64,000 nucleotides of DNA from a virus (IMGVR_UViG_3300046171_000202:1225-65224), one strand, 5' to 3'; shown: positions 14,322 through 64,000, numbered from the stretch's first letter. The notes: a model not told the origin generated them from the sequence alone. Translations and numbers: made by a program.

Positions 14322-14381
14322 TATTAGTAAAAAACGTGAAAATAGCGTAATAATATAGGAGTAAACAAATTAAATTTTATT

Positions 14382-40800: not shown

Positions 40801-43267
40801 ATTTGGTAACAAAAATATATTTATTCTAACTGCTAGACCAGTCGCTTCGGAAAGTGCTATACACGCGTTTATGAAAGGCTTAGGTATAGATATTCCACGC
40901 GCTAACATAACAGGACTTGCTAACAGTACAGCTCAAGCAAAGGCTGATTGGATGGTTGGCAAAGTTGCTGAAGGTTTTAACGACTTCTATTTCGTTGATG
41001 ACGCTATTAAAAATGTTCAAGCAGTTAAAGATGTTCTAGAGACTTTCGATGTTAAAAGCAAAGTTCAACAAGCTATAGCTCAAAGAAAGCGTAGTATGTC
41101 TTCTGATTTAAACGAAATGGTTGAGCGTAACAAAGGTGTTAGGGCTGAAACTACTTACTCCAAGGTATTAGCTAGAAAGAAAGGTGCTAAGAAAGGTAAG
41201 TTTAAGTTCTTTGTTCCTTATTCAGCTGAAGACTTTAAGGGTCTAACGTCATACACTCTAGCAGGTAAAGGTAAACAAGGAGAAGCTGATCAAAGATTTT
41301 TTGACCAAAACTTAATACTACCTTATACTAAAGGTATTGCGGCTATGGAAGGTGCTACTCAAGCGTTGAAAAATGATTATAAAAACTTACTTAATATGTT
41401 TGGTCTTAAAAAACAATTGCCTAGAAAAATAGGTGATACAGACTTTACTACAGACCAAGCCGTAAGAGTTTATTTGTGGGATAAACAAGGTTTTGAAATA
41501 CCTAATATATCTCAGCGTGACCAAAACAAGCTAAGTAGTCTTGTATCTAAAGACCCTGACTTAGTTGGCTTTGCAGAAGGTTTAATGGCTGTATCTAAAA
41601 AAGATCAGTGGGTTAATCCAAAAGATCATTGGGATGTTGGTAGTATACTAAAAGATCTTAATGATATAACTGACAACGTTAACAGAAAAGAGTATCTAGC
41701 CGAGTTTATCGAGAACGTTGATGAAATGTTCGATAAAACAACTTTAAATAAGTTAGAGGCTATTTATGGCACTAACTATGTAGATGCTTTACAAGACTCA
41801 ATACGTAGAATGAAGTCTGGTAGCAACACACCAAGGTCAGCTGGTAAGATAGAAAGAAAATGGTTGAACTGGGTAAATAACTCTGTAGGTACAATAATGT
41901 TCTTTAACAGAAGATCAGCGTTGCTTCAAATGTTATCATTCACTAACTTTATAAACTGGAGTGATAATAATCCTGCTAAGGCAGCTTTAGCTTTTAGTAA
42001 TCAGCCTTTATATTGGAAAAAGTGGGTTGAAATATTTAACTCTGATAAATTAAAAGAAAGACGTGGTGGTTTAAAATCAGATATACAAGAATCTGAAATA
42101 GCTAACCAAGCTAAGAACTCTAAAGATAAAGCTGCTGCAGTAGTTTCATATTTACTTAAGATAGGTTTTACACCAACGCAAGTAGCGGATAGTTTTGCTA
42201 TTGCAACTGGTGGTGCTACATTCTTAATAAATAGAACTAAGAAATACGAAAAGCAAGGGCTTTCAAAGAAAGAAGCTGAAGCAAAAGCATTTGAGGACTT
42301 CGGTAGAATATCAGATGAGACACAACAGTCTGGTGACCCAATGCTTATATCGCAGCAACAGTCTAGTCACTTAGGTCGTTTAATATTGGCTTTCCAAAAT
42401 ACACCTATGCAATACACTAGGTTAATGAAAAAAGCTGGTAAAGACATAATAAATAGAAGAGGTAGCGACGTAGAGAACTTAAGTAAAATAGCTTACTATG
42501 GCTTTGTACAAAACTTAATATTCTCTTCTTTGCAGTCTGCTTTATTTGCATTAATACCTGGTTTTGATGATGAAGAAGAAGACGATGCCAAACTTGAAGA
42601 TAAAGCTATAAGAACTGCAAACAGCATGGTTGACACTATATTAAGAGGCAGTGGGCTAGCTGGTGCAGTAGTATCTACACTTAAAAACGCTATAATGCGT
42701 TATAAGAAGGAAGATAAAAAAGCACAAGAAAGATATGGAGGAGGTGATCAAACCTATACTATGTTGGAACTTGCAAACATATCTCCACCAATAGGATCTA
42801 AGCTTAGAAAAATATATTCTGCAATACAAACTAAAAAGTTTAATCAAGCGGTTATAGATGAAATGGGTTACGATTTAACAGTTTTTGGTAGGTTTAATCC
42901 TTCACCTAACTACGAAATAATAGCAAATATAACTTCTGCTGTAGGAAACCTACCGTTAGATAGATTACTATCAGAGATTAAATCTATTAATGAAGCTTTT
43001 GATAGCAGAAATACGTCATACCAAAGGTTAGCTTTAGCTTTAGGTTGGAGAACTTGGGATGTTAATGTTAAAAACGAAGAGCAAGATTTAATTAAATCTG
43101 TAGCTAAAGCAAGAAAAAAAGAAGCTTCTAAACAAAAAGCTAAAGACAAAAGAAAAGCAAAAAGTTTAGATAAAAAAATAAAAAAAGAAGAAGAAAAAAA
43201 GAAAGCGATAAAAGATAAAAAAAACCCTGATTACGAGTTGCTAAAAATAATTAGATCAATAAATTAG
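34859..43267 (+). CDS. Giant (2802 aa) multidomain internal virion/polyvalent protein with membrane-like segments, a HExxH zincin motif and a HAD-like domain
   Basis: Gly/Ala hydrophobic stretches around 36200-36800; HEVGH at 37616-37630; HAD motifs VYDFDDT (DFDDT at 40595-40609), ILTAR and FVDD. Confidence 0.7.
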   Translation: MFETEDGVIDFNSLSEMEQLAFKAKYPNAKEISAAPTGEDETTSYDQSLLNAIRSVGSSEGKYDKYREKGIVRKPEDVELTKYVGHVSLMDAGSTRPRQIIKKEVLSKEYTADIEVELEDGSKIYLTPNEVNDPDINPTLNSKESEIKNKYYLEDGTTNRDIFNKKTQTKVISRPNFEGSTRIESTIKEEEVTPYEEEIKDTYNLLKELGKGSDKIPEKYRDWEGENPPIELVQDYVADLKYRQEIAKARKEEYDKAVSTFTKDEQEATRIQVEKRKERAESFLDKPEIKDLNIRLESYQNDPRYIQNLKIAKKFENGETLTQGEIKQYQNNAVELNEIDSKIHEDYEKYSLAIEEVSDSAEELDLLKRDYSLLNKFGFNAASTLSGLSFGLLEYLAPLSGMPGSNEIMEQMSIKRRKELEEAREKYRPDVAFEDAFSSLDNFGRFITEETGRQLPIFALIAASGGAATALGATSLGAGAVSGITLGTMSAGQQIGDMTYEEFLSKYNDIKAYGRNLEYNDKEYSDLNKFLVGTGFGAAEGLLGAAPTFILGSRFFNNATKSFIKAGEKGLLAKIPTTTFQKALNFGKPFAKEFVIGSAEEAITEGLTTLTQNIITRNSNIFEGVGHAAFSGGFFGGALGGGSVAMGSALSMSMNTAERAQIQDLLNQKQDILKQLSSLDGRTKGALALKNRAESIEKEISDKMLTAEKAWLSKMSKPNFEAYTKTLDAQARLRQQAFDIKNDETLSKAEKKKEIDLLAIDYQVLQGQIEAFRNPLDYANKYHLLKTTDEARYNEINKEASDKLSSEGVDLTKEKIDKEAYEIYLNQELESSKKSANKALKNLKLKHNKFNFKTEKDAIAEANKILKQENLDDLTKSFWKDVINNPGRINGQAANINGTYTYITIDETALKNERSGTATHEVGHIVFWDLLRRAREEGGKSDIALDFDSMAKDIEKYLKATHPEIHAEMFGKRDITQRVEEADGVLDSEEIVMGFVERIGRIDKNKKVTQTFLYRLGQIFNTKGNIPTDLSTQPAIVSFISSLAEKIKDGTLSKEQLDVAAKSDIFKSLVVKEKAKGTEDIKAKPETKKSLSILNTINNLVPKDVKTKAEFQGAKVFNPIYEATQPGGAIYNYVNSRALSREEAELMLEGIVDRLINYDPAAVRKTKSGEPITFGEFIFANTRFSKLDAKKQLAIESERRAESLDTEEARQVAEPVAETTTTEAPRVEYQNLVEASVLPADMVAKVKDKILLITKTLKSRIDAAVSINKTVTPLMSEIKKEIGKQADIEFKKMLGAKRGGELRNNFLKLKKPILENMTTTWLMQGMPFAIQKSVDGKFTSDWEGKKIDRESVGTDKAGRTSGAQLVRRLPNAANKITDEQFLTYMFKGDEVIRGRKEALAKALAEEYAFDTYGQELLNPSSEIRKAFEENQERLGTVLADNFVQEFNKQSERGNIKRSVSRLYDAAKNDATIIDNFIEGINTETFINRLVAEDGDLFRAIVGHFEENEIANLDGTKLKRIADQISSNALFNNYQFQIKSRDKKNVAIDLSLDITREIISPIEYKDIFAQAGIERKFDLKNLDLINEARLASKKLFDFLGEDDFIRGWYDGLQKPGGLAGFVPKKQPKGLILTLDEVELRPKGKSSRNGKYANTADIDNALGILTTKGKKRPVDQSRKNWFPGDAFNRLDNEGKINFVKDLYKEGAKDKEIYLKSLDFLANSVKDGSISLAAAEALIIGQFADMNGVGKAMASPRFVPVKNDGTIATIEELAEMGLAFDKDKLVLEHVITAKTMATNSVKYIINKDANVLKDIKTLLKDYDTAILPDKLDKILRERGTQEKMGIGYRPGDPIFDVRYKDLGIMFLDVKTGNFVGSLFSKTNPENANKNSNLDKAFKNAAKRSYSKNPKGISVYDFDDTLAFSKSQIIVKKDGKTFKINAAQFAKQGETLLAEGAEFDFSEFNKVVKGQPGPLIPRIQKAIDKFGNKNIFILTARPVASESAIHAFMKGLGIDIPRANITGLANSTAQAKADWMVGKVAEGFNDFYFVDDAIKNVQAVKDVLETFDVKSKVQQAIAQRKRSMSSDLNEMVERNKGVRAETTYSKVLARKKGAKKGKFKFFVPYSAEDFKGLTSYTLAGKGKQGEADQRFFDQNLILPYTKGIAAMEGATQALKNDYKNLLNMFGLKKQLPRKIGDTDFTTDQAVRVYLWDKQGFEIPNISQRDQNKLSSLVSKDPDLVGFAEGLMAVSKKDQWVNPKDHWDVGSILKDLNDITDNVNRKEYLAEFIENVDEMFDKTTLNKLEAIYGTNYVDALQDSIRRMKSGSNTPRSAGKIERKWLNWVNNSVGTIMFFNRRSALLQMLSFTNFINWSDNNPAKAALAFSNQPLYWKKWVEIFNSDKLKERRGGLKSDIQESEIANQAKNSKDKAAAVVSYLLKIGFTPTQVADSFAIATGGATFLINRTKKYEKQGLSKKEAEAKAFEDFGRISDETQQSGDPMLISQQQSSHLGRLILAFQNTPMQYTRLMKKAGKDIINRRGSDVENLSKIAYYGFVQNLIFSSLQSALFALIPGFDDEEEDDAKLEDKAIRTANSMVDTILRGSGLAGAVVSTLKNAIMRYKKEDKKAQERYGGGDQTYTMLELANISPPIGSKLRKIYSAIQTKKFNQAVIDEMGYDLTVFGRFNPSPNYEIIANITSAVGNLPLDRLLSEIKSINEAFDSRNTSYQRLALALGWRTWDVNVKNEEQDLIKSVAKARKKEASKQKAKDKRKAKSLDKKIKKEEEKKKAIKDKKNPDYELLKIIRSIN

Positions 43268-44496: not shown

Positions 44497-44811
44497 ATGA
44501 ATGAAATTACACAAATAATAATTACTGTAATAACAGTGTTGGGATCAGCATCGATATGGAAGTTTCTAGAAGCTAGATTAAAGGCTAAATACGAAACAAA
44601 GAAGATAAGACTACAAAATAACGACGGAGTGCAATATAGAGACGATTTGAAGAATAGAGTTAGAAACCTAGAGTCACTACTTGCGTCAAGCGCAAATGAG
44701 AAAGAGGAGTTAAGAGAGACCGTGCTCGAGCTAACCGAAGAAGTGTCTGCGCTACGTATCAAGGTTGAGTTCCTTGAAAAAGAAAACAAAAGACTTAAAG
44801 CTAAGGTATGA
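44497..44811 (+). CDS. N-terminal transmembrane helix plus coiled coil (holin or i-spanin candidate)
   Basis: IIITVITVLGSASIWKFL followed by long heptad repeats; near the endolysin. Confidence 0.55.
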   Translation: MNEITQIIITVITVLGSASIWKFLEARLKAKYETKKIRLQNNDGVQYRDDLKNRVRNLESLLASSANEKEELRETVLELTEEVSALRIKVEFLEKENKRLKAKV

Positions 44812-53178: not shown

Positions 53179-53210
53179 ATTATCTTAAGGTTATCGTATT
53201 TGTTTTGTAA
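53179..53210 (-). promoter_or_regulatory. Promoter-like motif copy 1 (TTACA-N6-ATACGA-N9-GATAAT)
   Basis: Plus strand attatc-ttaaggtta-tcgtat-ttgttt-tgtaa. Confidence 0.75.
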
Positions 53211-53211
53211 A

Positions 53212-53943
53212 TCAAAGAGTTTTGTTTATAAAGTACTGCGTGCTATCAAAGTTGTCAGTATTATAAAATAACTCATATGCTTCAGTGGCTTTTCTAACCT
53301 TTTCAATGCCACGTTCTATAAACTCCGGAGAGCAATCAAACAAACCTATTTGATGAGTATTTTTATCTATTGCAATAAATATAAGCTCATAACCAAATAG
53401 CTTGCTGTAAATGTATGCTTGGCTATCGTAGTTGTATTTCCAAGCTGATCTTTTAAACGAATCTATATCGTTGGTAGTTTTTAGATCAATAATCAGTTTT
53501 TCACTGTGGTTTATTATATCTGCCTTACCTTTCCATTTGTATCCGTCTAATTCTGTAATGCCAGGTTCTTCATATATTACGTCTCCTTTTCGTATGAGAT
53601 CTCTACATATATCATTTGACATTATCTTGTCTGATAGTAGTTCTATATTGTCGACCTCTTGTTGTAGAAGACATAGTTCACCTCCTGACATCTCTTTATA
53701 AGCCTTTGTATTTCTAGATGAAGATTGTATCACTTTGTATTTCTTAAGCTTATGCGGCTCGAGTATTGCAGTGTGAAAATAACCTCCAACTAGAAACGCT
53801 GGTGAAGGCTTACTAGGTTGCCCTAGTGCTAAAGGATTTTTAAGTAACGTTCCAATATCGCTATTACTTAAGTATTGTTTACCAAACTTTCCGTAATAAT
53901 GTTCATCTTCACGTAGTTTTTCTATTGCTTGTTTTTTATCCAT
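53212..53943 (-). CDS. RecE/exonuclease VIII-like PD-(D/E)xK exonuclease
   Basis: LSNSDI, GGYFHTAILEP, KGKADII, IIDLKTT and YDSQAYIY. Confidence 0.8.
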   Translation of the reverse strand: MDKKQAIEKLREDEHYYGKFGKQYLSNSDIGTLLKNPLALGQPSKPSPAFLVGGYFHTAILEPHKLKKYKVIQSSSRNTKAYKEMSGGELCLLQQEVDNIELLSDKIMSNDICRDLIRKGDVIYEEPGITELDGYKWKGKADIINHSEKLIIDLKTTNDIDSFKRSAWKYNYDSQAYIYSKLFGYELIFIAIDKNTHQIGLFDCSPEFIERGIEKVRKATEAYELFYNTDNFDSTQYFINKTL

Positions 53944-54480
53944 TTATAATGTTGTTAGTGCTTTCTCAACCTCAGCACTTAATTTGTATTTCGCCTTGAT
54001 AGCGTCAAGCTTGCCACCGCTTTTAACATAAGCTTTAGCTTTTGCAAACGCAGGATCTTTTACAGATGTTAGCGTACTTGCAGCGCCTTTACCGTGCGTG
54101 TTAGCAGCGTCACTGTCTTGAGTGTCATCAATTAAAAATAAGTTACCTAACGCATATTTTTTAGCATAACTCGAGGCTGATCCAAACTGTTGAGGAGTTT
54201 GCATACCTTTCTGATTAAGATCAACACCTACAATGGCGGTTGCGTGTATAGCACTTTTGCCGTCATTTACTGATGCTGTAGTCTTTAATACAGGCATAGG
54301 ACTATCAGCTATTAATTCTTCATTAATTGTAACTGTTACGCCTAGCTCCTTTAAAAAGGGTTTTGTTGCTTCGAGAATGTCTTCGGCACTGCGAAAGTGG
54401 TATTTGCCGAATGAGTTGAACCTAGATTTTTTAGATTTAAATCTGGTTTGGATTTCTGTTAATTTGTCGTTTAACGTCAT
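53944..54480 (-). CDS. ERF-family ssDNA annealing protein
   Basis: NSFGKYHFRSAEDILEA and QQFGSASSYAKKYALGNLFLIDD. Confidence 0.85.
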   Translation of the reverse strand: MTLNDKLTEIQTRFKSKKSRFNSFGKYHFRSAEDILEATKPFLKELGVTVTINEELIADSPMPVLKTTASVNDGKSAIHATAIVGVDLNQKGMQTPQQFGSASSYAKKYALGNLFLIDDTQDSDAANTHGKGAASTLTSVKDPAFAKAKAYVKSGGKLDAIKAKYKLSAEVEKALTTL

Positions 54481-54539
54481 AGGTATGTTGGTTTGATATT
54501 ATTATAATTACACATTTATTTTATTATTTAACATTTAAC

Positions 54540-55296
54540 TCAAAGATAATCAAGCACTTGCGAGTGATCTACGTTCTCTATTAATCGTTCAACAGCTTGC
54601 TTTTTTAACTGTGAAACCCTAACATATGCGCTAGTACCTTTTATCTGTAGTTTTTCAGCTATTTGCTTAGCACTGTGCTTATCACAGTCTAAACCGTAGC
54701 TTAATCTTAGTACTTCATATTCTTTGTGGTTTAAATGCTTTTTAAGTAAACCGATCAAATAAACATTAAGTAATTCTTTATTATACGGCTCTGACTGATC
54801 TGCAATTTGGTATGCCATATTCTCATCGTTATTAGGCTTTGCATCTATACTTAAGAATATACTATTAAAAAACATCTCAACCATTTGCCTGTTCTTTGCC
54901 GAAGTCTTTTCGTATTTCATTAAGCTTGTGTTCTGGTATACGTATATTACCTCTGTTTATATCTACAGCTCTTCGTATTGCACCTTTAATTCGTTTGCTT
55001 AAAAAAGACTTATAGTTTTTTCTATGTCATCTGATTCACATAGCTTTTCCCAGTCGATCCTGTCAACAGCTGCTACTAAACCTACTGATCCTTCTTGTAT
55101 TAGATCAGTTAATGCTTAATACGCCAGATGCTTGCTGAGATGTAGAAAACTTACGTGCTAGATTTTCTACCAAAGGTAAGAACTTTACTATAAGTTCATC
55201 TCTAGTTAGCATCGCGTAATCTATTTCATCGTCAGGCATAGATCTATTAAGATCTTGTTTGTACTTTATATAGTTACTTACGTTATAGCTCTTCAT
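54540..55296 (-). CDS. Sigma-70-family RNA polymerase sigma factor, with three apparent frameshifts (about 55107, 55010, 54894)
   Basis: Reconstructed LPLVENLARKF…DLIQEGSVGLVAAVDR (region 2), RIKGAIRRAVD…IRIPEH, and region-4 HTH EYEVLRLSYGL…SAKQIAEKL…RVSQLKKQAVERL. Confidence 0.8.
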
Positions 55297-55900
55297 TTAA
55301 TATTTGTTTTTCTTTTTTTAGTGTTTCGCACATATGGCGATATATAGTTCTCTGTGTTACGTTTAACGCTTTGGCTAGTTTATTTGTTGTAATCTTCTGA
55401 CCTTCATCGTTTATATCTAACATGCATTGGTATAATATAGTTTTATCTAATTTATTTCTACCAATTAATTTACCTACGATACTAAGCTTATCACTTAAAC
55501 TAAGTCCCCAAGCGGCAGGTTTAAATATTACTTTCCTTAATTTGTTTACTGGTGGATCGATACCCTGATCAAATACATCTTGTATCATTTTATCTAATAC
55601 TTTACTTTTAATAAAAAAGGTTACAAAACCGTTTTCTTTATTAGCAATAAATTTATATATAGATCTTAAAAAATCTTCGTTCTCTCCCTCATTTAAGAAT
55701 TGTAACACTAAAAAATGCCACTTAAGTGACCTGTATGTAGTAATTTTAGCTTTACTAGCAAATAAAGTATAACACTGATGAGTACCATTGTTATAGTACA
55801 TGTATAGATCGGTCTCTTGGCTGGGTTGATCCGACCAAGGATTACATCTAGTAATCACACGTCTATCGTGCAGCCATTTTATTTTTCTATCATGTGACAT
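55283..55900 (-). CDS. Hypothetical protein with C-terminal helix-turn-helix
   Basis: ITTNKLAKALNVTQRTIYRHM. Confidence 0.65.
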   Translation of the reverse strand: MSHDRKIKWLHDRRVITRCNPWSDQPSQETDLYMYYNNGTHQCYTLFASKAKITTYRSLKWHFLVLQFLNEGENEDFLRSIYKFIANKENGFVTFFIKSKVLDKMIQDVFDQGIDPPVNKLRKVIFKPAAWGLSLSDKLSIVGKLIGRNKLDKTILYQCMLDINDEGQKITTNKLAKALNVTQRTIYRHMCETLKKEKQILNEEL

Positions 55901-55956
55901 TAGCTAGTTACTTATTAATCCTTATAGGCTATTGTCATAGCCGTGTTATATTTACT

Positions 55957-56094
55957 TTATTTTTTTGTTTTATTTTTCTTTGTTTTAGTTACTTTTTTAA
56001 CTTCGTTTACATATGCAGCATCTTCTAATGCGGCAACTAATCCATTAAAAAAATTACTTATTCCTTTAAATAATTTTATTATAATCTCCTTCAT
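55957..56094 (-). CDS. Small protein, 45 aa, with basic tail (MKEIIIKLFKGISNFFNG…KKNKTKK)
   Basis: Hand translation; fills the gap in the operon. Confidence 0.5.
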   Translation of the reverse strand: MKEIIIKLFKGISNFFNGLVAALEDAAYVNEVKKVTKTKKNKTKK

Positions 56095-56545
56095 AAATTT
56101 TCTCATTTTTGTTTGCTACTGTGTGTTTCTCAGCAATATAGTATCTCCAGTAGGCCTTTATACTACACGCGCTTTTGTATTCATCTGGCATTGCTTGAGG
56201 AGGCTGCTTAAAGTCTGACGTAGTCATGCCCATAGGAGGCCATTTAAGAGCATCTCTGCATTTAGTTATTGTTAAATGTGTTTTGCCATATCTGAACGTA
56301 TATTCATCTCCTAAAGCCATCATATGTTGGTATAACCAATTGTAATGCTTAGTATTAGAACGAGTCCAGATGGTGCTTGGATGGTTAATGTGGCTTACTT
56401 TGTATGGAACGTTGTCACCATTGCCATGAAAATGATGCGCCGAGCATAGCATTTGAGCTGACTCAAGAACCATTTTAACAACGTGTTTGTTGTACTGTAA
56501 CCTAGCAGCCGTATCTGGATCTGCGTCTAAATAAAATATGTTCAT
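56066..56545 (-). CDS. Pyrimidine-dimer DNA glycosylase (DenV/endonuclease V-like) family protein
   Basis: MNIFYLD…KHVVKMVLESAQML…HINHPSTIW…EYTFRYGKTH. Confidence 0.75.
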   Translation of the reverse strand: MNIFYLDADPDTAARLQYNKHVVKMVLESAQMLCSAHHFHGNGDNVPYKVSHINHPSTIWTRSNTKHYNWLYQHMMALGDEYTFRYGKTHLTITKCRDALKWPPMGMTTSDFKQPPQAMPDEYKSACSIKAYWRYYIAEKHTVANKNEKIYEGDYNKII

Positions 56546-57054
56546 GTATTTGTTATCTTTTGTTCTTCGTATTTGTTTTGTAAATGTGGTTTAACTTTGT
56601 GCCAATATTTTAATGTAGCTTTCTTTTTGTCTCCTCGAGGACCGCCATTCCATCTTCTTGATACGATCTCTGCGTACTCCATAAATGTAACATACTCGCA
56701 GCATATATATTGCTCTGCTATAATGTTAAACATCTGTATAGATTTTGCTCTGCTGTAACGATCTTGTAATGAGTATCTTACGTTTGACTTATGCTTGCGT
56801 AATATTCTATTAACTTCTCTTACGCATATAGGTTGTATCTGTAAACAGCCTACGGCTTTACCTCGATCACCGATCGCAGAGTCATTACCTCTACTTTCTA
56901 CAAAAATTATTGCATCGATTAAATCTTCCCATGATGGCTCGATCGTTACTTTTACTTGCTCTGTGGTCGGAGCAGATCTGTGTATAGCATTACTCGTGTT
57001 GCTCTTCGGCATCACTAAGCTTACTGCTATAGTTGCTATTAATAATTTGTTCAT
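56542..57054 (-). CDS. Signal-peptide-bearing lysozyme-like / lytic transglycosylase protein
   Basis: N-terminal hydrophobic signal; AIIFVES…AVGCLQI…WNGGP. Confidence 0.7.
   Translation of the reverse strand: MNKLLIATIAVSLVMPKSNTSNAIHRSAPTTEQVKVTIEPSWEDLIDAIIFVESRGNDSAIGDRGKAVGCLQIQPICVREVNRILRKHKSNVRYSLQDRYSRAKSIQMFNIIAEQYICCEYVTFMEYAEIVSRRWNGGPRGDKKKATLKYWHKVKPHLQNKYEEQKITNT
56552..56583 (-). promoter_or_regulatory. Promoter-like motif copy 2
   Basis: gttatc-ttttgttct-tcgtat-ttgttt-tgtaa; 6 nt before ATG 56545. Confidence 0.75.
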
Positions 57055-57272
57055 AAGTTTGCTTCTTTAACGAAGTAGTTGAATACTTCTGGTATATGTT
57101 TCTTGTAATACGGCTGTGTATCCATACACCAGTCCATTAGTTTTTCTCTACTTGTAAATTTTTCGTTTAGTGTTGGTATGTTAGGATTTTGTATCATTCT
57201 AAACATAGGGTTTAGCTCATCAATAAAATTTCCAACTGTCCAGCCTTCGTATATGTGTTTATCTCTATTCAT
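57051..57272 (-). CDS. Hypothetical protein (MNRDKHIYEGWTV…); probable start 57272
   Basis: In-frame ATG overlapping the ligase end. Confidence 0.6.
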   Translation of the reverse strand: MNRDKHIYEGWTVGNFIDELNPMFRMIQNPNIPTLNEKFTSREKLMDWCMDTQPYYKKHIPEVFNYFVKEANL

Positions 57273-58102
57273 AATTTCTAATACATTTAAATAGTGGGTG
57301 TCTGTAGCTATTAGCTTTAGTTCTTTGAAAATAAGTAAAGGTAGCACGCTTGCCAATAAAAGAATCTACATTCTTGAGCATTGTTTTAAGATCCTTGTAC
57401 GAGTAGCCCTTGCCCGGAGGACAGCCGAACACTATCCCGTCGTCATCTTGCATAATGAACTTGCCAAGCGTGCCAGTCCGTTTACCTTTACCAGTAACAT
57501 AATCGATGATAGTAGCTTCGGTGTCGCTGAAGTCTTTGAACTTCATTAGATCGTAAGATCTACCGTGCTTGTATATACCATCGCCATTTCTTATAATTGA
57601 GCCTTCGTAGCCGAGTGATAGAAACTCTTCATGCTGAACTCTAGCGTAATTGTAGCTATCAACTAGTAATGCAGGAACGTGCTTGATTTGTGCATCGTAG
57701 AAACCTGCGTTTACAAGTAACTGCATACGTGCTTGATAGTTGTCATACATAACACCATCGAAAGTAATCATATACGTGAAACTGTACTAGATGCTGAGCA
57801 TCTAGCCTGTCTTCATCTGTAGGCTTTTGCTTGCGTACTAGTGATATGATCTTTTCGAAGTCGTGCTTTAGCTTGTGATTGTAAAGCTCGCCATCGAGTA
57901 CTATATCTGGTTGTTCAGCAAAGAAAGGCTTGAGTGCCATTTCAATGTGACGCACGTTCATGAACTGCTTGCCGTTGCGTGAGAATGCACCGTCTTTCGT
58001 GAATAAGCAGCGAACGCCGTCGAGCTTTGCTTGAATGTAAACTGGTCTTGTAAAGTCGATACGTGAGTTATCGAACTTGTGTGCTAACATGGCTTTTTTC
58101 AT
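57265..58102 (-). CDS. ATP-dependent DNA ligase, with one apparent +1 frameshift at about 57760
   Basis: KLDGVRC (motif I), LDGELY, FHVYD, EGSIIRN, LMKFK and a C-terminal OB domain. Confidence 0.88.
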
Positions 58103-58115
58103 TTTGTTTTATATT

Positions 58116-58147
58116 ATTATCCTTCTTGTGTCGTATTTGTTTTGTAA
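58116..58147 (-). promoter_or_regulatory. Promoter-like motif copy 3
   Basis: attatc-cttcttgtg-tcgtat-ttgttt-tgtaa; upstream of the ligase. Confidence 0.75.
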
Positions 58148-58581
58148 TTTTTATCGTACTGTTGTAGAGCTTTTTCTGGTTTGCCTACAAATATAACAGT
58201 TCTAGTTGAAACTTTATATATAGACATATAAGTGTCATGACCTTCTTTAGGGTATAAAGTATATATGTACTCAGCCCAACCGATCTCGTTATCTATTGGG
58301 TGCAGATACATTTGACCTGCTCGATCTTTAAATTTAGCTATGAACTGAGCTGCAAAGCAACCTGCTCCATTAGCTATCTCATTAAGATTTTTGTTATTAC
58401 CTAAGCCATTAATGATCTTTATATCTTTTAACCACTCTGCGTACTCAACAGCCATATACTCTGGATAACCATCGTACTGTTGGTATATGTTAACTAACGC
58501 TAACTCAGCTCTAGTATGACCTTCACTGTAAGACAAACCTTCTTGTCTTGGTATTATTCTTGTTAAACTTCTTGTACCCAT
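58117..58581 (-). CDS. Phage hypothetical protein (MGTRS…YQQYDGYP)
   Basis: 154-aa ORF with the MGTRS/DGYP motif type common in phage early regions. Confidence 0.7.
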   Translation of the reverse strand: MGTRSLTRIIPRQEGLSYSEGHTRAELALVNIYQQYDGYPEYMAVEYAEWLKDIKIINGLGNNKNLNEIANGAGCFAAQFIAKFKDRAGQMYLHPIDNEIGWAEYIYTLYPKEGHDTYMSIYKVSTRTVIFVGKPEKALQQYDKNYKTNTTQEG

Positions 58582-58991
58582 TATATTTTAATTATTTTTA
58601 TTCCTGATTCTTTCATAAGATCAAGCCCTTCGGTTGATCCTTCATAAACTTCTTTGTATACTACCTTAACTATGCCTGCTTGTATTATTAGCTTGCTGCA
58701 ATCTTTACAAGGAGACAACGTGCAGTACAATGTAGATCCGCTTGAGCTGTTAGTAGATTTAGCTACTTTGACTATAGCGTTAGACTCTGCGTGCAGTACA
58801 GACCATTTTGTCTTGTTACCTTCTTCGCAAGTATTACAGAAGCCAGAAGGTGTACCGTTATAACCAAAGGATAATATATTATTATCTTTAACTATAATGG
58901 CACCAACCTTCTTTCTACTGCATTTACTTAGCTGGCTAACTTCACCAGCTATGTTCATATACACTATGTCAAGTTCTTTAATATTAGGCAT
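58581..58991 (-). CDS. dCMP deaminase
   Basis: KVGAIIV, GYNGTPSG, HAESNAI and SPCKDC zinc motifs. Confidence 0.92.
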   Translation of the reverse strand: MPNIKELDIVYMNIAGEVSQLSKCSRKKVGAIIVKDNNILSFGYNGTPSGFCNTCEEGNKTKWSVLHAESNAIVKVAKSTNSSSGSTLYCTLSPCKDCSKLIIQAGIVKVVYKEVYEGSTEGLDLMKESGIKIIKI

Positions 58992-59448
58992 TGATCACTA
59001 CGTCGTTTTGAAGTACCCAACCTTCAGCAAGTAATTCATCTTGCATTTCTTCTACTTTTTCATCAAAGTAATCTTCATATACTTCTGATATTACATCTTG
59101 AAAAGTATAGTTTTCATCTTCTAGCTCTGAGAAATATATCTTAGCACCATCTTTGATCGCGTGAGGCATTTCATCTAGCCAACCATTTTCGTAGTAGTAT
59201 ACATCTTCGGCAATATTAATTTGATTACCATCGCCATATGCGCATACGTGCACGTCATAGCCATCAGCTGTTGATTCTATATAGAACCATCTAGTACAAC
59301 TATTATCCCACATAGATACTATTTCAGCATCCCAGTGGTTTAGTACTACTTTAAGCTTGTCTTCGTGATCTGTATCATGCGGTTGAGTGATACCTTTTTC
59401 TTCTAGTTTTTCCCATAGAACTTCTTCTATTATAATTTTATTTGACAT
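58984..59448 (-). CDS. Acidic hypothetical early protein
   Basis: 154 aa, strongly Asp/Glu-rich; preceded by the promoter motif. Confidence 0.7.
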   Translation of the reverse strand: MSNKIIIEEVLWEKLEEKGITQPHDTDHEDKLKVVLNHWDAEIVSMWDNSCTRWFYIESTADGYDVHVCAYGDGNQINIAEDVYYYENGWLDEMPHAIKDGAKIYFSELEDENYTFQDVISEVYEDYFDEKVEEMQDELLAEGWVLQNDVVINA

Positions 59449-59454
59449 ATTGTT

Positions 59455-59486
59455 ATTATCTTACTTGTTTCGTATTGTGTTTGTAA
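59455..59486 (-). promoter_or_regulatory. Promoter-like motif copy 4
   Basis: attatc-ttacttgtt-tcgtat-tgtgtt-tgtaa; 6 nt before ATG 59448. Confidence 0.75.
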
Positions 59487-59487
59487 A

Positions 59488-59727
59488 TTAATCTAGTAGT
59501 ACCATATATGCTTCAGGGTTAGCTTTTCTAAACCAGTCGCAACCTTTTTGTACTATTGTCCAGTTTTGAGTCATGTTTGCACCCATAATTAGGTCATACA
59601 TAGCTGCTTCATCTGCGCTACAGTCATAACTATCGCCTGAAAACGGGTTAGTGATCGTTTCGCCTTCAGAGTATTTGATACCATCAAACCACTCCGGTAA
59701 TTCTACTTTTTCTTTTGTTTTACTCAT
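59488..59727 (-). CDS. Hypothetical early protein (…NPFSG…WFRKANPEAYMVLLD)
   Basis: ORF track; coupled to the upstream gene. Confidence 0.7.
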   Translation of the reverse strand: MSKTKEKVELPEWFDGIKYSEGETITNPFSGDSYDCSADEAAMYDLIMGANMTQNWTIVQKGCDWFRKANPEAYMVLLD

Positions 59728-59987
59728 AATGTATCTATTTTTAAATCGTTATCTTCTAAGAATAAATTACCACCCCACCTAATATCATACACATCAGTTT
59801 CATACATATCTATACTACTGAATAAGTATATAGAATAAATGGTAGACATTTTAAGATCTTGATACAACATAGCTTCATCTAGTTCTTTGTAGATAAGGTT
59901 AATACAGAAATCATACTCTGGTTTTTCTTTTTCTAATGCTGCTTTAACTTCTGGTCGAAGTCTTTGTAATAAGGTAATTCTTTTCAT
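59724..59987 (-). CDS. Hypothetical early protein
   Basis: ORF track; preceded by the promoter motif. Confidence 0.65.
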   Translation of the reverse strand: MKRITLLQRLRPEVKAALEKEKPEYDFCINLIYKELDEAMLYQDLKMSTIYSIYLFSSIDMYETDVYDIRWGGNLFLEDNDLKIDTL

Positions 59988-60011
59988 ATATTTTTATTTA
60001 ATTTTATACTT

Positions 60012-60043
60012 AATATCCTACTGTCATCGTATTTGTTTTGTAA
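60012..60043 (-). promoter_or_regulatory. Promoter-like motif copy 5
   Basis: aatatc-ctactgtca-tcgtat-ttgttt-tgtaa; abuts the 3' end of the tRNA-like element. Confidence 0.72.
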
Positions 60044-60044
60044 A

Positions 60045-60222
60045 TTGTAGGCGCGGCAGGAATCGAACCTGCCTACCATAGCTTTATTACTTACCTACAT
60101 AGCTTCATTGCCTGCTGGTCGGGTGTCATCACTATGACAGATAAGTAAACCTTCATCGAGCCGTTTATTGCACCTCGTCAGGATCACGCCTTTAATCGCT
60201 ATTTAAAATCCACTTGCGCCTA
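60045..60222 (-). ncRNA. tRNA-like/tmRNA-like structured RNA, about 178 nt
   Basis: 5' TAGGCGC pairs with 3' GCGCCTA; canonical T-arm GGCAGG-TTCGATT-CCTGCC; long internal helix; intergenic. Confidence 0.6.
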
Positions 60223-60287
60223 TATACCCAGTCATTTGCCACCTTTGCTCGTCGCCGCGGTTTGTTATTTATTCGCTGGGTGTGTCT

Positions 60288-60446
60288 TTAGCTTATTAAG
60301 CTTTGTAGTTTTTCTACAGATAACTTGATCAGCTCTTGTCTTTTTTCGTGTGGTAGATCGTCCATCTGCCAATCCACCGTGTCTAGTAGCAGCTCTTGCA
60401 TGTGTATAGCAACGCCGCTAGCAATATCTTCAATTTTCTTCTGCAT
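60288..60446 (-). CDS. Hypothetical protein, 52 aa (MQKKIEDIASGVAIHMQELL…)
   Basis: Hand translation. Confidence 0.55.
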   Translation of the reverse strand: MQKKIEDIASGVAIHMQELLLDTVDWQMDDLPHEKRQELIKLSVEKLQSLIS

Positions 60447-60558
60447 CTCTTTCTTCTCTGATTAATAGTTCTTCAATTTCACACCATAGCATATCATATA
60501 TTTGATCTTTGCTATAGTGTTCTTTTAATTTTGTGTAGGCTAATTCCCACGGTGACAT
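60430..60558 (-). CDS. Hypothetical protein, 42 aa (MSPWELAYTKLKEHY…)
   Basis: Hand translation; operon packing. Confidence 0.5.
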   Translation of the reverse strand: MSPWELAYTKLKEHYSKDQIYDMLWCEIEELLIREERDAEEN

Positions 60559-60562
60559 AATT

Positions 60563-60754
60563 CTACTCATAATTTCCATACATTACTATTGGTTTTTCTG
60601 TTAACATATACTCTACGTACATTATTTTATGACCTGCTTGCTCTATAAAGTCTTCTATCTTGCCCATCGATGTGTTATAGTTGTACCTATAGCACTTACC
60701 GTCGTCGAAGTCGAGTATGAAGAGGTATGTTTTTTTATTAAATATATTTTCCAT
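60563..60754 (-). CDS. Hypothetical early protein
   Basis: ORF track; ATG 6 nt from the promoter motif. Confidence 0.65.
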   Translation of the reverse strand: MENIFNKKTYLFILDFDDGKCYRYNYNTSMGKIEDFIEQAGHKIMYVEYMLTEKPIVMYGNYE

Positions 60755-60760
60755 GTTATT

Positions 60761-60792
60761 ATTATCGATTGCTATTCGTATTATTTTTGTAA
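60761..60792 (-). promoter_or_regulatory. Promoter-like motif copy 6
   Basis: attatc-gattgctat-tcgtat-tatttt-tgtaa; 6 nt before ATG 60754. Confidence 0.75.
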
Positions 60793-61157
60793 TTTCTCAA
60801 GTAGAAGTCTAACATATACTTCATACGTGCAAGTGGACTTAGTATTAACTCACGCTCCCAACACATAGATCTTCTAGTTGATAAACTACCGTCATTACTC
60901 ATTACAGTCCACCTAGTTTCTTTCAAGTACTTCTTGTTTAGTTGATACCATCTACTTGTTGGAGATACTTTTCTTACATAACCTGACTTAAAGCAAGCGA
61001 TGCGCTGGCCTGTTGGCATAAGAAATGATCTTGTACCATTATTACGCTGGCGAGTTGTAGTTACTTCTTGTATACCATATACTATTTCCATTGACTTTGC
61101 GAAAGCATCTTCCACCTTGTGGCGATCTTCGAATTTTATGTTATTATAATTATACAT
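60762..61157 (-). CDS. Hypothetical early protein
   Basis: 131-aa ORF. Confidence 0.7.
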   Translation of the reverse strand: MYNYNNIKFEDRHKVEDAFAKSMEIVYGIQEVTTTRQRNNGTRSFLMPTGQRIACFKSGYVRKVSPTSRWYQLNKKYLKETRWTVMSNDGSLSTRRSMCWERELILSPLARMKYMLDFYLRNYKNNTNSNR

Positions 61158-61326
61158 AAGTGTTACCGTTTATTGTGTACCATTGAGAGTACGAGTTATA
61201 CTTCTTGTCTGCATAGTAGTAAGTTGTGTCTACTTTGTTTACAATTTTGTTCTCACCTTCGGTATCTATAGCTATCTTTGTAGCTACGCCGAAGTCATTT
61301 ACTTCTAGTGTTTTAATTTTTTTCAT
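61150..61326 (-). CDS. Hypothetical protein, 58 aa (MKKIKTLEVNDFG…)
   Basis: Hand translation; overlaps the downstream start. Confidence 0.55.
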   Translation of the reverse strand: MKKIKTLEVNDFGVATKIAIDTEGENKIVNKVDTTYYYADKKYNSYSQWYTINGNTYV

Positions 61327-61343
61327 ATAGTGTATTTATTTAA

Positions 61344-61562
61344 TTATCTTAAGCATGTTCCATAACCTTTGCGCCTTGCAGCTTTATTAATACTATCTGC
61401 TTGTGACTTTGGCATAAACTGAAAGTTATTACCTGTTTTGTGGTTAGTGATCGGCACTGCGCCATAAGGTTCAGTTGTACTACACTTGACACAAGTTTTG
61501 TACGATAGTTTTATTCTGACTGGGTGGATTGGACCACCACATTTGCAAAGTTGTATATTCAT
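61344..61562 (-). CDS. Zinc-finger protein (CKCG…IHPVR…CVKC; DksA/TraR-finger-like)
   Basis: C-x-C…R…C-x2-C spacing; ATG 6 nt from the promoter motif. Confidence 0.6.
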   Translation of the reverse strand: MNIQLCKCGGPIHPVRIKLSYKTCVKCSTTEPYGAVPITNHKTGNNFQFMPKSQADSINKAARRKGYGTCLR

Positions 61563-61568
61563 GTTATT

Positions 61569-61600
61569 ATTATCTTATAGTGTTCGTATTTGTATTGTAA
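61569..61600 (-). promoter_or_regulatory. Promoter-like motif copy 7
   Basis: attatc-ttatagtgt-tcgtat-ttgtat-tgtaa; 6 nt before ATG 61562. Confidence 0.75.
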
Positions 61601-61603
61601 ATT

Positions 61604-61789
61604 CTAATACATTTCTCTTATCCACGATGGTATTTCGCTTGATGATGCGATCTCTACACGATCATCATAGAAGTTTAAGAAGGCTTCTTCATTTACTACG
61701 ATCGATTGACCTGTTTCTTTGACATGTACTACATCAAATATTGACGCGTGGAAAAATTCTGGTGTTGCTTTTTTAATGTTCTTCTGCAT
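61604..61789 (-). CDS. Hypothetical early protein
   Basis: ORF track. Confidence 0.6.
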   Translation of the reverse strand: MQKNIKKATPEFFHASIFDVVHVKETGQSIVVNEEAFLNFYDDRVEIASSSEIPSWIREMY

Positions 61790-61899
61790 AATTTACTTTT
61801 ACTTTATTAATTTCTTTTGTTATTCTTGCTACGAGTTGTATTTCTTCTGCGTCGAGTGCTTGCTCTCTTAGCGTTTCAAGCGCCCATATTATTAGTGTT

Positions 61900-62163
61900 T
61901 TATCCATATATTCTACCTTCTTGTGCTATTGAAAACTTAATTGAGTCGCCTGATACTGATCGAGCGCCAGCATACACAGTTTTTTCTGTCAACCTTTCTA
62001 CTTCAGTTATGAAGTCATATTGAGTGTAGCCAGCACCTTCGGGTACAGCTATGTTAAAACTTGTTATACCTCTCTTAGCGCAGTCTTTTGCTACATTTAT
62101 AGCTGCATTTACTTTTGTTAGCATTGCTTTTTCTATTGATTGTTTACTTACTATTATCTTCAT
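61900..62163 (-). CDS. Hypothetical early protein
   Basis: ORF track. Confidence 0.6.
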   Translation of the reverse strand: MKIIVSKQSIEKAMLTKVNAAINVAKDCAKRGITSFNIAVPEGAGYTQYDFITEVERLTEKTVYAGARSVSGDSIKFSIAQEGRIYG

Positions 62164-62323
62164 TTTGTTCTTGTTCTTTAATATACATGTTAGTTAATTC
62201 TAGTATTGCAAAGATCGCTATCACTGCAAATATATAACCTATTCCTTTGTAGCCTAGCGTGAAGAAACCTACAGATTCTACGCTACCTAATATTGCTAAT
62301 ACTTTTAATATTGTTTTCTTCAT
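62144..62323 (-). CDS. Small membrane protein, 59 aa
   Basis: Hand translation MKKTILKVLAILG…GYIFAVIAIFAILEL; two hydrophobic segments. Confidence 0.5.
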   Translation of the reverse strand: MKKTILKVLAILGSVESVGFFTLGYKGIGYIFAVIAIFAILELTNMYIKEQEQNEDNSK

Positions 62324-62444
62324 AATTATCTTACTATTATTGTATACATGGCGAATACGAGCGCTGTTATTATTGATAGTGTTACTACTCGCTGCGTGTA
62401 TAGCATTACTTTACTTAATTTTGTGTGTGAATGTTTCTGCATAA

Positions 62445-62600
62445 TTACTTTCTTCCTTTACCTACTATTTTATAATTAGTGTACTTGTCTTCCATATTTT
62501 TGTATACTTTGACTATATCGAGTATACCTTCTTCGTTCTTTCGATACATTAGAGTGTATGGGTGGTTAGTTTTGTTCCAGTGTGGTATTCTTCTGTTCAT
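62445..62600 (-). CDS. Hypothetical protein, 51 aa (MNRRIPHWNK…)
   Basis: Hand translation; downstream of the promoter motif copy at 62613. Confidence 0.5.
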   Translation of the reverse strand: MNRRIPHWNKTNHPYTLMYRKNEEGILDIVKVYKNMEDKYTNYKIVGKGRK

Positions 62601-62612
62601 ATTTGTATTATT

Positions 62613-62644
62613 ATTATCTTATAGTGTTCGTATTTATTTTGTAT
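62613..62644 (-). promoter_or_regulatory. Promoter-like motif copy 8
   Basis: attatc-ttatagtgt-tcgtat-ttattt-tgtat. Confidence 0.72.
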
Positions 62645-63105
62645 TTTCTTTAGATAGATCTACTCCACGAGAGAAGTATTTTTCAGTTCCATCTTTGTAC
62701 TTGTATAAGCGATCAAAGTTTTGTGTTGCTTCATTGAAGCGTAGTATAGTTATAAATTCTTTTTTCATATTATTTATTATTATTTATTAGTGTCAATGAA
62801 GCGTTGTAGTATTATTTCTATCGTTACTTGATCGTGGAATGGAAGATCACCTGAAGTTAAGTTATGTTCTTCACATATTGAATTGAAGTCGATATAATTT
62901 AATAGTTCTTTTTTCATATTATTTAGTATTTCTTGCTTTATTTATTAGTTCTTGTACTTGCTCGCGAGTTAGTTCACCAGCCATTTGCTTCAGTATTACT
63001 TGAGTGAAGTCAATTGTTTCTTTTCCGTTATTTAATATTACTTGCATAGTTATTTATATTTTAAGTTAAGTTTAATGTTTTAAGATTTAGAGTTTCCAGT
63101 CTACA

Positions 63106-63342
63106 CTATACAACTTCTGCATCACGTAGTGGAGTTGGTACTGAAGTACTAGAAGTATAGCTTTTGTACTTTTCCCAGCAGTTCATTGCTTCGAGTTTAT
63201 CTTTCATGATAGCGAATGCTTTATCGTGATTGTACTCAAATGTTTTACCATTTTTGAATTCTACTTTGATTGTAGTGTTTTTACCGATTAGTGATTTTCT
63301 GATAACGAATCTTTTTGAAGTGATTGAATTTTGATTTGACAT
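63106..63342 (-). CDS. Hypothetical early protein
   Basis: ORF track; preceded by the promoter motif and an A-rich leader. Confidence 0.7.
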   Translation of the reverse strand: MSNQNSITSKRFVIRKSLIGKNTTIKVEFKNGKTFEYNHDKAFAIMKDKLEAMNCWEKYKSYTSSTSVPTPLRDAEVV

Positions 63343-63392
63343 AATTTTATTTTATTTTAAGTGTTAATGTTTATTTGTTTAGTTGTATTAGT

Positions 63393-63424
63393 ATTATCCA
63401 GTTTGTTTCGTATTTAGTTTGTAA
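63393..63424 (-). promoter_or_regulatory. Promoter-like motif copy 9
   Basis: attatc-cagtttgtt-tcgtat-ttagtt-tgtaa. Confidence 0.75.
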
Positions 63425-63470
63425 AAGTACTAGTTTTGTTTTTGTATTGTTTTGTTGTTAGTAGTATTGC

Positions 63471-63713
63471 TCACACTCTCTCTTCTTCTAGTTTACATAA
63501 GTATGCAGAACGTAAATGGAATAAGTGTTCAAGATCTTTTGTAAGTAGTTGATATGTTACTCCATTGTTGAAAGCATTTTGTATGTACTTTTCTATGAAT
63601 GGATCGACTGATCCGTCAGCTGGAGATGGTGCATGTTCGTAGAATAAATCTGCTGCATAATCTGTCAGTGTTTCTAAGTACTCGTCGTAAGTTAATGTGT
63701 TTATGTTATTCAT
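63471..63713 (-). CDS. Hypothetical early protein
   Basis: ORF track; ATG 6 nt from the promoter motif. Confidence 0.65.
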   Translation of the reverse strand: MNNINTLTYDEYLETLTDYAADLFYEHAPSPADGSVDPFIEKYIQNAFNNGVTYQLLTKDLEHLFHLRSAYLCKLEEERV

Positions 63714-63719
63714 GTTATT

Positions 63720-63751
63720 ATTATCTTTAATGTTTCGTATTTACTTTGTAA
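63720..63751 (-). promoter_or_regulatory. Promoter-like motif copy 10
   Basis: attatc-tttaatgtt-tcgtat-ttactt-tgtaa; 6 nt before ATG 63713. Confidence 0.75.
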
Positions 63752-63788
63752 TATCTTTTGTTATTATTTGTAGTTGTTATTCATATAT

Positions 63789-63820
63789 ATTATCTATATC
63801 GTCTCGTATTAAGTATGTAA
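63789..63820 (-). promoter_or_regulatory. Promoter-like motif copy 11
   Basis: attatc-tatatcgtc-tcgtat-taagta-tgtaa; tandem with copy 10. Confidence 0.72.
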
Positions 63821-64000
63821 GTGCTATACATATATTGTCAAATAAAAGTCTGAAATATCTACAGCGAGTGCAAGATCAGGTTAAGGATGAGGGTAGGGGA
63901 TCGGGCCGGGTAACGCCAAAAAATTATCTGGAACGGATATAAATAGGGTGGGGCTGGTAATAAAAAATGGTTTTTACTTTGCGATGCGGCCGGCGAGGTG

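Follow-up and report, generated by a model that had tools for sequence, protein, structure and literature searches.

A tripartite promoter-like motif with predicted leaderless starts in a Flavobacteriaceae podophage and its relatives

Promoter classes read by a phage-encoded sigma factor are known from SPO1 (gp28 and gp34), from T4 (gp55, late promoters) and from phiEco32 (gp36). In other promoters a tandem binder replaces the -35 box, as at the pho box with PhoB and at the T4 middle promoters with their MotA box and AsiA; the pho box consists of two 7-bp direct repeats spaced by 4 bp and placed about 10 bp ahead of the -10 hexamer. Here, we describe a tripartite motif, TTACA-N6-ATACGA-N9-GATAAT, that occurs in 11 copies between positions 53179 and 63820 of a viral sequence of 64,000 nucleotides (nt), IMGVR_UViG_3300046171_000202:1225-65224. 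We call this sequence the window; it covers nearly the whole of a 65,224-nt contig, and positions are counted from its first letter unless stated otherwise. Judged by sequence comparison, the motif is real, extends through a whole clade and resembles a phage-specific promoter, with three boxes in an unusual layout and many predicted leaderless starts. Like the phage-sigma classes, it has an information-rich consensus that the host primary sigma would not read, stands before many genes, and belongs to a genome with its own sigma-70-family gene. Unlike them, it heads the first, early-type genes and not middle or late ones, it has three boxes with a 21-nt outer gap, and its reader is a candidate. 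With the activator-dependent promoters it shares 7-bp repeats that are 4 bp apart and end 8-9 bp upstream of the -10-like box, the arrangement and spacing of the pho box, as well as the lack of a usable -35 box. In place of a PhoB- or MotA-like protein, which was not found, the candidate binder is here a helix-turn-helix (HTH) protein of a virus-only family.

A further comparison is offered by phi14:2, a crAss-like Cellulophaga phage. The accessible part of the report on this phage calls its middle promoters an extended tripartite motif and states that its early transcripts have no common motif and that no early promoter was definable (bioRxiv 10.1101/2020.03.07.982082). The likeness to our element thus extends to a tripartite motif, a Flavobacteriia phage and a related head module. 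In contrast, the sequences upstream of g070, g075, g108 and g110 of phi14:2 are host-type (TTG ... TAnnTTTG), and its genome holds no copy of our motif at up to two mismatches, the best being one site with three mismatches. The motif was not described in any text found by full-text searches on the boxes, on phage sigma factors and on the early promoters of marine Bacteroidetes phages.

An earlier note on this sequence, made without database searches, had listed the 11 copies, all on the - strand, and both their number and their coordinates hold. Eight match the pattern exactly (53179, 58116, 59455, 60761, 61569, 63393, 63720 and 63789) and three carry one mismatch (56552, GATAAC; 60012, GATATT; 62613, ATACA), with none expected by chance. 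The exact pattern did not arise in any of 100 shuffles; at up to three mismatches there are 13 matches in the window, against 0.41 +/- 0.57 expected and a largest shuffle count of 2. In all 11 copies ATACGA is invariant and the 6- and 9-nt spacers are exact, as the note had also claimed. A de novo count of all 6-mer/gap/6-mer dyads placed ATACGA-9-GATAAT at the top of the genome with 11 occurrences, a rank that it shares with seven overlapping or reverse-complement versions of itself. The 1224 nt of contig that precede the window contain two further copies. The head of the contig (contig positions 441-684) matches its tail (64982-65224; window 63758-64000) at 83% identity, giving a unit length of about 64.5 kb, and since the contig ends overlap in this way, the two additional copies are diverged counterparts of those at 63789 and 63720 and the number of distinct copies is 11.

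Two sites were found at up to three mismatches beyond these copies. The one at 54958 (-), with three mismatches, was rejected as a copy because it sits within the coding sequence of the phage sigma factor (region 2.4). The other (44578..44609, +), with two mismatches, falls in a + strand open reading frame (ORF) close to where the rightward arm ends, and may be a weak internal promoter or a chance match.

All 11 copies are in the leftward arm of the genome, most densely at the start of the arm. The copy nearest the divergent control region (63789..63820, -; exact) has no ORF of at least 35 amino acids (aa) directly after it and is followed 69 nt later by the second copy (63720..63751, -; exact), where the ATG of an 80-aa ORF (63471-63713) lies exactly 6 nt past GATAAT. 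At the third (63393..63424, -; exact) the ATG of a 78-aa ORF lies 50 nt past GATAAT, and at the fourth (62613..62644, -; one mismatch) an ATG lies 12 nt past it. The distance is again exactly 6 nt at the fifth copy (61569..61600, -; exact), which has CACTATA in its spacer, and 6 nt at the sixth (60761..60792, -; exact), within the 3' end of ORF 60762-61157. The seventh (60012..60043, -; one mismatch) directly follows the 3' end of a tRNA-like sequence and has its ATG 24 nt past the last box, while the eighth (59455..59486, -; exact) precedes a 154-aa ORF with its ATG 6 nt past GATAAT. The ninth (58116..58147, -; exact), within the 3' end of ORF 58117-58581, heads the DNA ligase gene, whose ATG lies 13 nt on. 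The tenth (56552..56583, -; one mismatch), within ORF 56542-57054 and with an ATG 6 nt on, is the closest copy upstream of the HTH-sigma operon. Finally, the eleventh (53179..53210, -; exact) directly follows the stop codon of the exonuclease gene, has an ATG 18 nt on and heads a block of small ORFs and the primase-helicase gene. In total, the ATG is exactly 6 nt past GATAAT at 5 of the 11 copies, and an ORF on the same strand starts at 6-50 nt at 10 of them. By the ORF table, three copies (58116, 60761 and 56552) are wholly within the 3' end of an upstream ORF, a situation which the note had reported for some of them, and in two of these three the TAA of GATAAT is the stop codon of the upstream ORF. 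From these positions we infer that the motif is a phage-specific promoter class heading the transcription units of the leftward arm, namely small early-type ORFs followed by genes for nucleotide metabolism, recombination and replication. That these genes are early, as the note called them, is deduced from gene content only.

For the anatomy of the motif we number from the first T of TTACA (position 0), so that GATAAT occupies positions 26-31, and we use 190 unique copies from viral contigs. Because the three boxes were fixed by the search pattern, the informative parts of this set are the other positions, together with the copies that carry one mismatch. The extended consensus of the 190 copies reads [A/T][A/T]TTACAAAcTAAATACGA ... 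tG GATAATATAAAT R. Its final purine, at position 38 and thus 7 nt past GATAAT, is present in 181 of the 190 copies (A in 94, G in 87); G is found in 0-7 of 190 at positions 36, 37 and 39 and is rare at most neighbours of position 38. All 11 window copies have a purine here (10 A, 1 G). Position 38 is also the commonest place of the ATG: the first ATG that opens at least 30 codons lies exactly 6 nt past GATAAT in 42 of 193 copies, against 11 of 193 for the next commonest offset; in 14 copies, an ATG of this kind is absent from the next 120 nt. Where the listed copies of relatives have one mismatch, it is mostly at the first T of TTACA or in ATACGA, and GATAAT is seldom affected. Upstream, TTACAAA and ATACGAA form two 7-bp direct repeats that start 11 bp apart and, counted from a start at position 38, occupy -38 to -21, the usual -35 location; ATACGA ends 9 bp before GATAAT.

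We propose that GATAAT acts as a -10 hexamer at -12 to -7 and that transcription would start at the conserved purine of position 38. In classical sigma-70 promoters a purine start lies 6-8 nt after the -10 hexamer. An ATG at position 38 would give a leaderless mRNA and, with the ATG exactly at the predicted start in so many copies, many of the mRNAs are predicted to be leaderless. Such starts would be unusual for Flavobacterium, in which 87% of the mapped transcripts have leaders of more than 10 nt according to the accessible part of the source (PMC6847099). A separate observation concerns the copies that are not of the leaderless type, many of which, in viruses, read GATAAT-ATAAAT-GTAAC (positions 36-42) and so have an ATG and then a TAA, a start-stop pair, at the predicted transcript start.

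How does the motif compare with the promoters of known sigma factors? GATAAT shares five of six bases with the sigma-70 TATAAT, including A2 and T6. The gap from the TTTACA-like box to GATAAT, however, is 21 nt in all copies, as the note had pointed out, against the classical 16-18 nt, which excludes a classical -35/-10 pair. A generic sigma-70 scan was not enriched (60 sites versus 46 +/- 6.9), and some copies were picked by it only through a non-conserved TAAGAT. Promoters of extracytoplasmic function (ECF) sigma factors have AAC at -35 and CGT at -10, about 16-17 nt apart; on inspection of the logo, no AAC/CG pair with that spacing was found among the conserved bases. In the Flavobacterium sigma-A -7 element, TAnnTTTG, the bases T-12, A-11, T-8, T-7, T-6 and G-5 are nearly invariant and the start follows 4-5 nt after, as given in the available text of the source (PMC6847099). 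The motif reads G-12 A-11 T-10 A-9 A-8 T-7 A-6 T-5 and hence is without T-12, T-8, T-6 and G-5, in agreement with the note's statement that it does not match the primary promoter of Bacteroidota. Within the genome, TAnnTTTG sites are not positioned ahead of genes, and TTG-N17-21-TAnnTTTG is not enriched (13 matches versus 8 in the control). Judged from its bases, then, the motif cannot be read by the host primary sigma. The host-type pattern was also tried as a contrast between sigma-less relatives and the motif clade; it was not enriched in any of five genomes and is therefore uninformative.

The motif is widespread among related phages. A scan of viral contigs found at least 174 loci, and from these matches the records of 30 relatives were chosen, 17 of which are at least 90% complete (52-71 kb). 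The 30 records contain 169 copies at up to one mismatch, 1 to 22 per record and on a single strand within each record, against 0 for the reversed pattern on the same records. The base just 5' of GATAAT is specific to the lineage (G, T, C or A). Outside the clade, five isolated or deposited relatives (MW202828, elemoE, phi13:2, phi38:1 and Gundel) have no copies at up to two mismatches. The nearest of them, MW202828, which is also without a sigma gene, instead has 14 copies of a perfect 16-bp palindrome, GTGTCGTTAACGACAC, between 43.7 and 55.2 kb (L303-L305), and 11 of the 14 lie about 17-40 nt before an ATG in the early-type region. Each lineage of this phage group thus seems to have its own early-gene signal.

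The promoter reading that the note had put forward is strongly supported in computational terms, by orientation, position, -10-like box, purine, ATG peak and clade-wide conservation. The motif might still be no promoter at all and serve instead as an operator for a phage DNA-binding protein, or only as a signal for recombination, packaging or entry. Tandem protein binding typically involves direct repeats at this 11-bp distance, the copies bound indels among relatives, and the palindrome of MW202828 holds an analogous position. We nevertheless consider this extremely improbable in view of the strict co-orientation of the copies with the genes, the fixed distance to the purine with an ATG peak at a single offset, and the fact that the best conserved part is the TATAAT-like box. 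Furthermore, there is no other promoter-like element before these genes, given that neither the sigma-70 nor the host-type scan was enriched.

The note had also suggested a role of the copies as recombination joints. One relative (G007) aligns collinearly to the window with about 87% identity, and the indels between the two cluster where the copies are dense: G007 is without a 258-nt cassette that the window has immediately upstream of the copy at 62613, and this indel begins 6 nt from the copy. In contigs of other relatives, homology breaks at 59446 and at 60787-60792 (the 5' edge of the copy at 60761), and at the joints 62603>62922 and 62781>63734 the inserted letters are motif sequence. These indels and homology breaks at copies give the idea suggestive support, on the basis of few breakpoints. 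In the PeSL cassettes of T4-type phages, as described in the accessible parts of two reports, repeated early-promoter sequences flank small variable gene cassettes (PMC2839356, PMC4122927). A possible resemblance is that insertions, deletions and replacements between close relatives may end at a repeated promoter-like element (here at a handful of breakpoints); the difference is that no stem-loop, hairpin or terminator-like site was found beside any copy of the motif.

In light of the motif being promoter-like, what might read it? The best explanation, to which we give about an even chance, is host core RNA polymerase together with the clade's own sigma-70-family factor. The gene for this candidate reader (54540..55296, -) is matched by intact orthologs (243-263 aa) in 18 of 20 records with the motif, and in 16 of the 17 that are at least 90% complete. 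No ortholog was found in any of five motif-less isolated relatives, nor did any gene in them exceed the cut-off for the sigma-70 family. Among the near-complete records only G010 has no sigma match; its three listed motif copies are within 6 kb of a contig end, so that its sigma gene may lie off the contig. The ortholog of G007 scores 56.1 bits against TIGR02937 (cut-off 42.9) and passes the Pfam models of regions 2 and 4 (r2 and r4). Residues 11-140 of this ortholog align to regions 1.2-2.4 of RpoD/SigA chains in solved holoenzymes, the module that reads TATAAT-type -10 boxes. The protein has at least 8000 metagenome homologs, and the contigs of the 120 best matches listed do not exceed about 70 kb. 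In one relative (G013) a copy of the motif lies exactly 38 nt before the ATG of the sigma gene. The neighbouring gene (55283..55900, -) encodes the 205-aa HTH protein, with its HTH at the C-terminus and a family confined to viruses; it is directly upstream of sigma in about 13 of the 19 relatives examined, and the protein may be a co-factor on the two direct repeats.

According to this explanation, host core RNA polymerase carrying the phage sigma would read the motif, with the 18-bp block TTACAAA-N4-ATACGAA (-38 to -21), whose repeats are one helical turn apart, standing in for the -35 box. The HTH protein, co-transcribed with sigma, may aid by binding the direct repeats. The first sigma molecules could come from read-through, from an element that we call P_A, or from sigma carried in the virion.

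P_A (55898..55938, -) reads TGACA-N2-AGCCTAT ... TAAGTAAC ... AGCTAATGTCA, may also be written TGACA-N2-AGCCTAT ... TAAGTAAC ... AGC(C)TA-TGTCA, and has the ATG of the HTH gene at its end. At least 13 relatives retain P_A, which could be a promoter, an operator or an RNA structure. Ahead of the window, another copy (contig position 731, +) stands at the head of the rightward arm, with 94% conservation in G007; a third (14336-14374, +) is weak. We dropped the idea that P_A is a late promoter, as the site at 14336 (+) fits a post hoc pattern and is not clearly kept in distant relatives.

Several points weigh against the phage sigma as the reader. In the window itself, at least two frameshifts interrupt the sigma gene. 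It lies downstream of motif copies, so that a sigma-dependent motif needs another initial source of sigma, and P_A, the only other conserved element before sigma, is not host-promoter-like either. The opposite wiring, in which another factor reads the motif at time zero and the sigma reads P_A or late promoters, is equally natural. Moreover, motif and sigma co-occur at the level of the clade, which amounts to one evolutionary event and not many, and the base 5' of GATAAT tracks the sigma clades only partly. (When this base, at -13, was compared with sigma residues, the T and C classes were monophyletic, unlike the A and G classes, and the comparison yielded no residue rule.) MW202828 heads its early genes with a different repeat, so elements of this kind need no phage sigma. 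Six RNA-library runs contain 12-17% of the window's words and four of them gave assembled contigs of relatives 90-95% alike, but these are assembled contigs without starts, strands or levels, and no transcript 5' end was seen in them; contig ends at motif edges were not counted as start sites, as they may be assembly breaks at a repeat. Finally, exact copies of the motif precede conserved host genes in several Flavobacteriaceae chromosomes and, in one of these genomes (G031), an ECF sigma gene is arranged divergently to the motif gene and has a copy with three mismatches facing it.

These chromosomal copies raise the possibility that a host factor reads the motif from the time of infection, either an alternative or ECF sigma or the host polymerase with an activator on the repeats, with the phage sigma acting later, at promoters like P_A. 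A search with a stricter version of the motif, 20 bases long, gave 62 loci in bacterial genome assemblies. Many of these are short phage fragments binned into metagenome-assembled genomes, and one 117-kb contig with two identical copies 62.6 kb apart resembles a phage concatemer. Several matches, however, are on large Flavobacteriaceae contigs before host genes: at seven loci in six genomes a 460-aa membrane protein follows, with N-termini that are alike or identical, and for the genomes of this family fewer than one chance match is estimated; other matches precede small secreted proteins. The divergent ECF gene of G031 fits such a factor, and the wiring would give a natural early-to-late cascade with no bootstrap problem. 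We consider a host reader unlikely all the same. The five motif-bearing host genomes have only one or two copies each and no excess of degenerate ones (103 at up to three mismatches versus 77 in the control). The 460-aa gene is accessory, being present in 7 of 61 genomes of the genus, and none of its five orthologs that were found without regard to the motif carries it at up to three mismatches. As a general reader the ECF sigma of G031 was rejected, for it has no close ortholog in eight other motif-bearing hosts (best 31-40% identity), and none of the best is shown beside a motif. A homolog of the phage sigma was not found in the five hosts at E <= 0.01, and the spacing of the motif is unlike the AAC-N16/17-CGT of ECF promoters. 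Defence-gene models found nothing among the host genes behind the chromosomal copies. We read the host copies as sporadic captures, not as a host regulon. As a separate observation, they are often beside genes for MORN-repeat proteins (L297 in G031:C6, 6251-8650; L265 and L270 in G033:C2; L266 in G034:C9).

Another candidate reader is suggested by T7. The core AATACGA, the 9-nt gap and the invariant G are the heptamer and spacing of T7 promoters: in the T7 genome AATACGA-N9-G has 13 forward matches (12 with the conserved promoter core), 0 reverse matches and 1 in the control, and the G of one match, at 5848, is the annotated coordinate of promoter phi1.1A. Two window copies have CACTATA in the spacer. 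Accordingly, an injected phage RNA polymerase that has escaped recognition might read the motif as a T7-like promoter, with the G of GATAAT as the first transcribed base; the mRNAs predicted above to be leaderless would then all have a leader of 12 nt. The only candidate for such an enzyme, by its sequence and place, is a 2802-aa ORF (34859..43267, +), which by location closes the virion-gene module, the place of the virion polymerase in crAss-like phages, and which has a clade-specific conserved core of 851 aa (residues 1050-1900) that would be the enzyme. The core is 35-47% identical among distant homologs and has many invariant charged residues. In addition, the sigma-less MW202828 has hairpin-type repeats before its early genes.

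We regard this reading as quite unlikely. No polymerase of family PF00940 was found in four complete clade genomes (G000, G007, G013 and G019), for which T7 as positive control gave E 1e-109. A profile of the giant protein matched no solved polymerase, and its hhalign comparison with T7 polymerase gave a probability of 0.3%. N4-type virion-polymerase promoters are short hairpins with a 5-7 bp stem and a small loop, whereas all 11 copies of the motif are unstructured when folded as single-stranded DNA (0 to -1.5 kcal/mol, z -0.28 to +1.21); in being linear and unstructured they are like T7 promoters. They differ from these in the extra TTACA box, in a spacer that resembles T7 weakly and one base out of register, in a purine at position 38 that would go unexplained, and in that the strongest conservation lies past the T7-type start, since GATAAT, the most invariant box, would fall downstream of it. 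The virion polymerase system of crAss-like phages uses a giant virion protein with a DFDxD catalytic motif, according to the accessible text (bioRxiv 10.1101/2020.03.07.982082). In contrast, the 2802-aa ORF has no D.D.D / DxDxD motif, and BLASTP against gp65, gp66 and gp67 of phi14:2 gave E >= 0.03. Searching the ORF and its core by tblastn against 50,697 phage records gave no match, and a match of the ORF in a protein atlas, at 0.75, is meaningless. It is highly doubtful, in our opinion, that the 851-aa core is a new injected RNA polymerase without similarity to those of T7, N4 or crAss-like phages, reading the T7-like core, with the host copies marking genes that are fired upon entry of the phage machinery. 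As side observations, the ORF has an HEVGH metalloprotease motif (around residue 919) and a DxDxT HAD-like motif (around residue 1913), and its homologs swap in Zeta-toxin, LysM and other modules. Of the three readers which the note had offered, the phage sigma is favoured by its co-occurrence with the motif, a host factor is disfavoured by the lack of a visible regulon, and an injected polymerase finds no support in the sequences.

The transcription of Bacteroidota phages is poorly understood, and the motif is a sharply defined and easily testable candidate promoter class in an abundant marine phage clade. In the same clade there are candidates for the cognate sigma and for an accessory DNA-binding protein. 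E. coli promoters fail in Flavobacteriia, as stated in the available part of the source (PMC6847099), and if our proposal is correct, the motif and its sigma would make a portable promoter/sigma pair for this class. Likewise, it would add many natural leaderless mRNAs in a phylum without Shine-Dalgarno sequences, give a sequence tag for annotating the early regions of these phages in metagenomes, and extend promoter-bounded cassette exchange beyond the T4 group. The chromosomal copies raise the question of whether hosts borrow a phage promoter.

The phage itself is a podophage of Flavobacteriaceae of about 64.5 kb with a crAss-like head module and no recognisable virion RNA polymerase. From the divergent control region, the rightward genes encode GroEL, a tail fibre, terminase, portal and head proteins, a crAss-type muzzle domain and the 2802-aa ORF. 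The leftward arm has many small ORFs, then dCMP deaminase, ligase, the HTH protein and the sigma factor and, further on, Erf, exonuclease, primase-helicase, thymidylate synthase, MazG and ribonucleotide reductase. Terminase comparison places podophages of Flavobacterium, Cellulophaga, Tenacibaculum and Maribacter closest among the cultured phages (32-45% identity), and the highest identity is with the uncultured MW202828 (63%); no close relative at the DNA level was found among the 50,697 phage records, and these comparisons revealed no cultured member of the clade. The ends of G007 wrap around as those of our contig do, over about 6.9 kb, and the wrap-around ends suggest circularly permuted genomes assembled from mixed strains.

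Four genes on the - strand are split: sigma (54540-55296), DNA ligase (57265-58102), the small subunit of ribonucleotide reductase (47076-48036) and primase-helicase (50838-52543). At 57760/57761, where two ligase ORFs overlap, the relatives' contigs from all four RNA runs are without one base, and hence the ligase break, at least, looks like an assembly or strain indel. Scans of the window for tRNAs and Rfam families found nothing at threshold. Directly before the copy at 60012, about 170 nt (60048-60215, -) are closed by an acceptor-like stem and have a perfect T-arm (GGTTCGATTCC) at the 3' end. ARAGORN made no find in this stretch, its Rfam tRNA score is 16.3 bits (E 0.99) and its fold z-score is -1.8, but it has the highest contig depth in one RNA library, and it may be a tmRNA-like or tRNA-like RNA.

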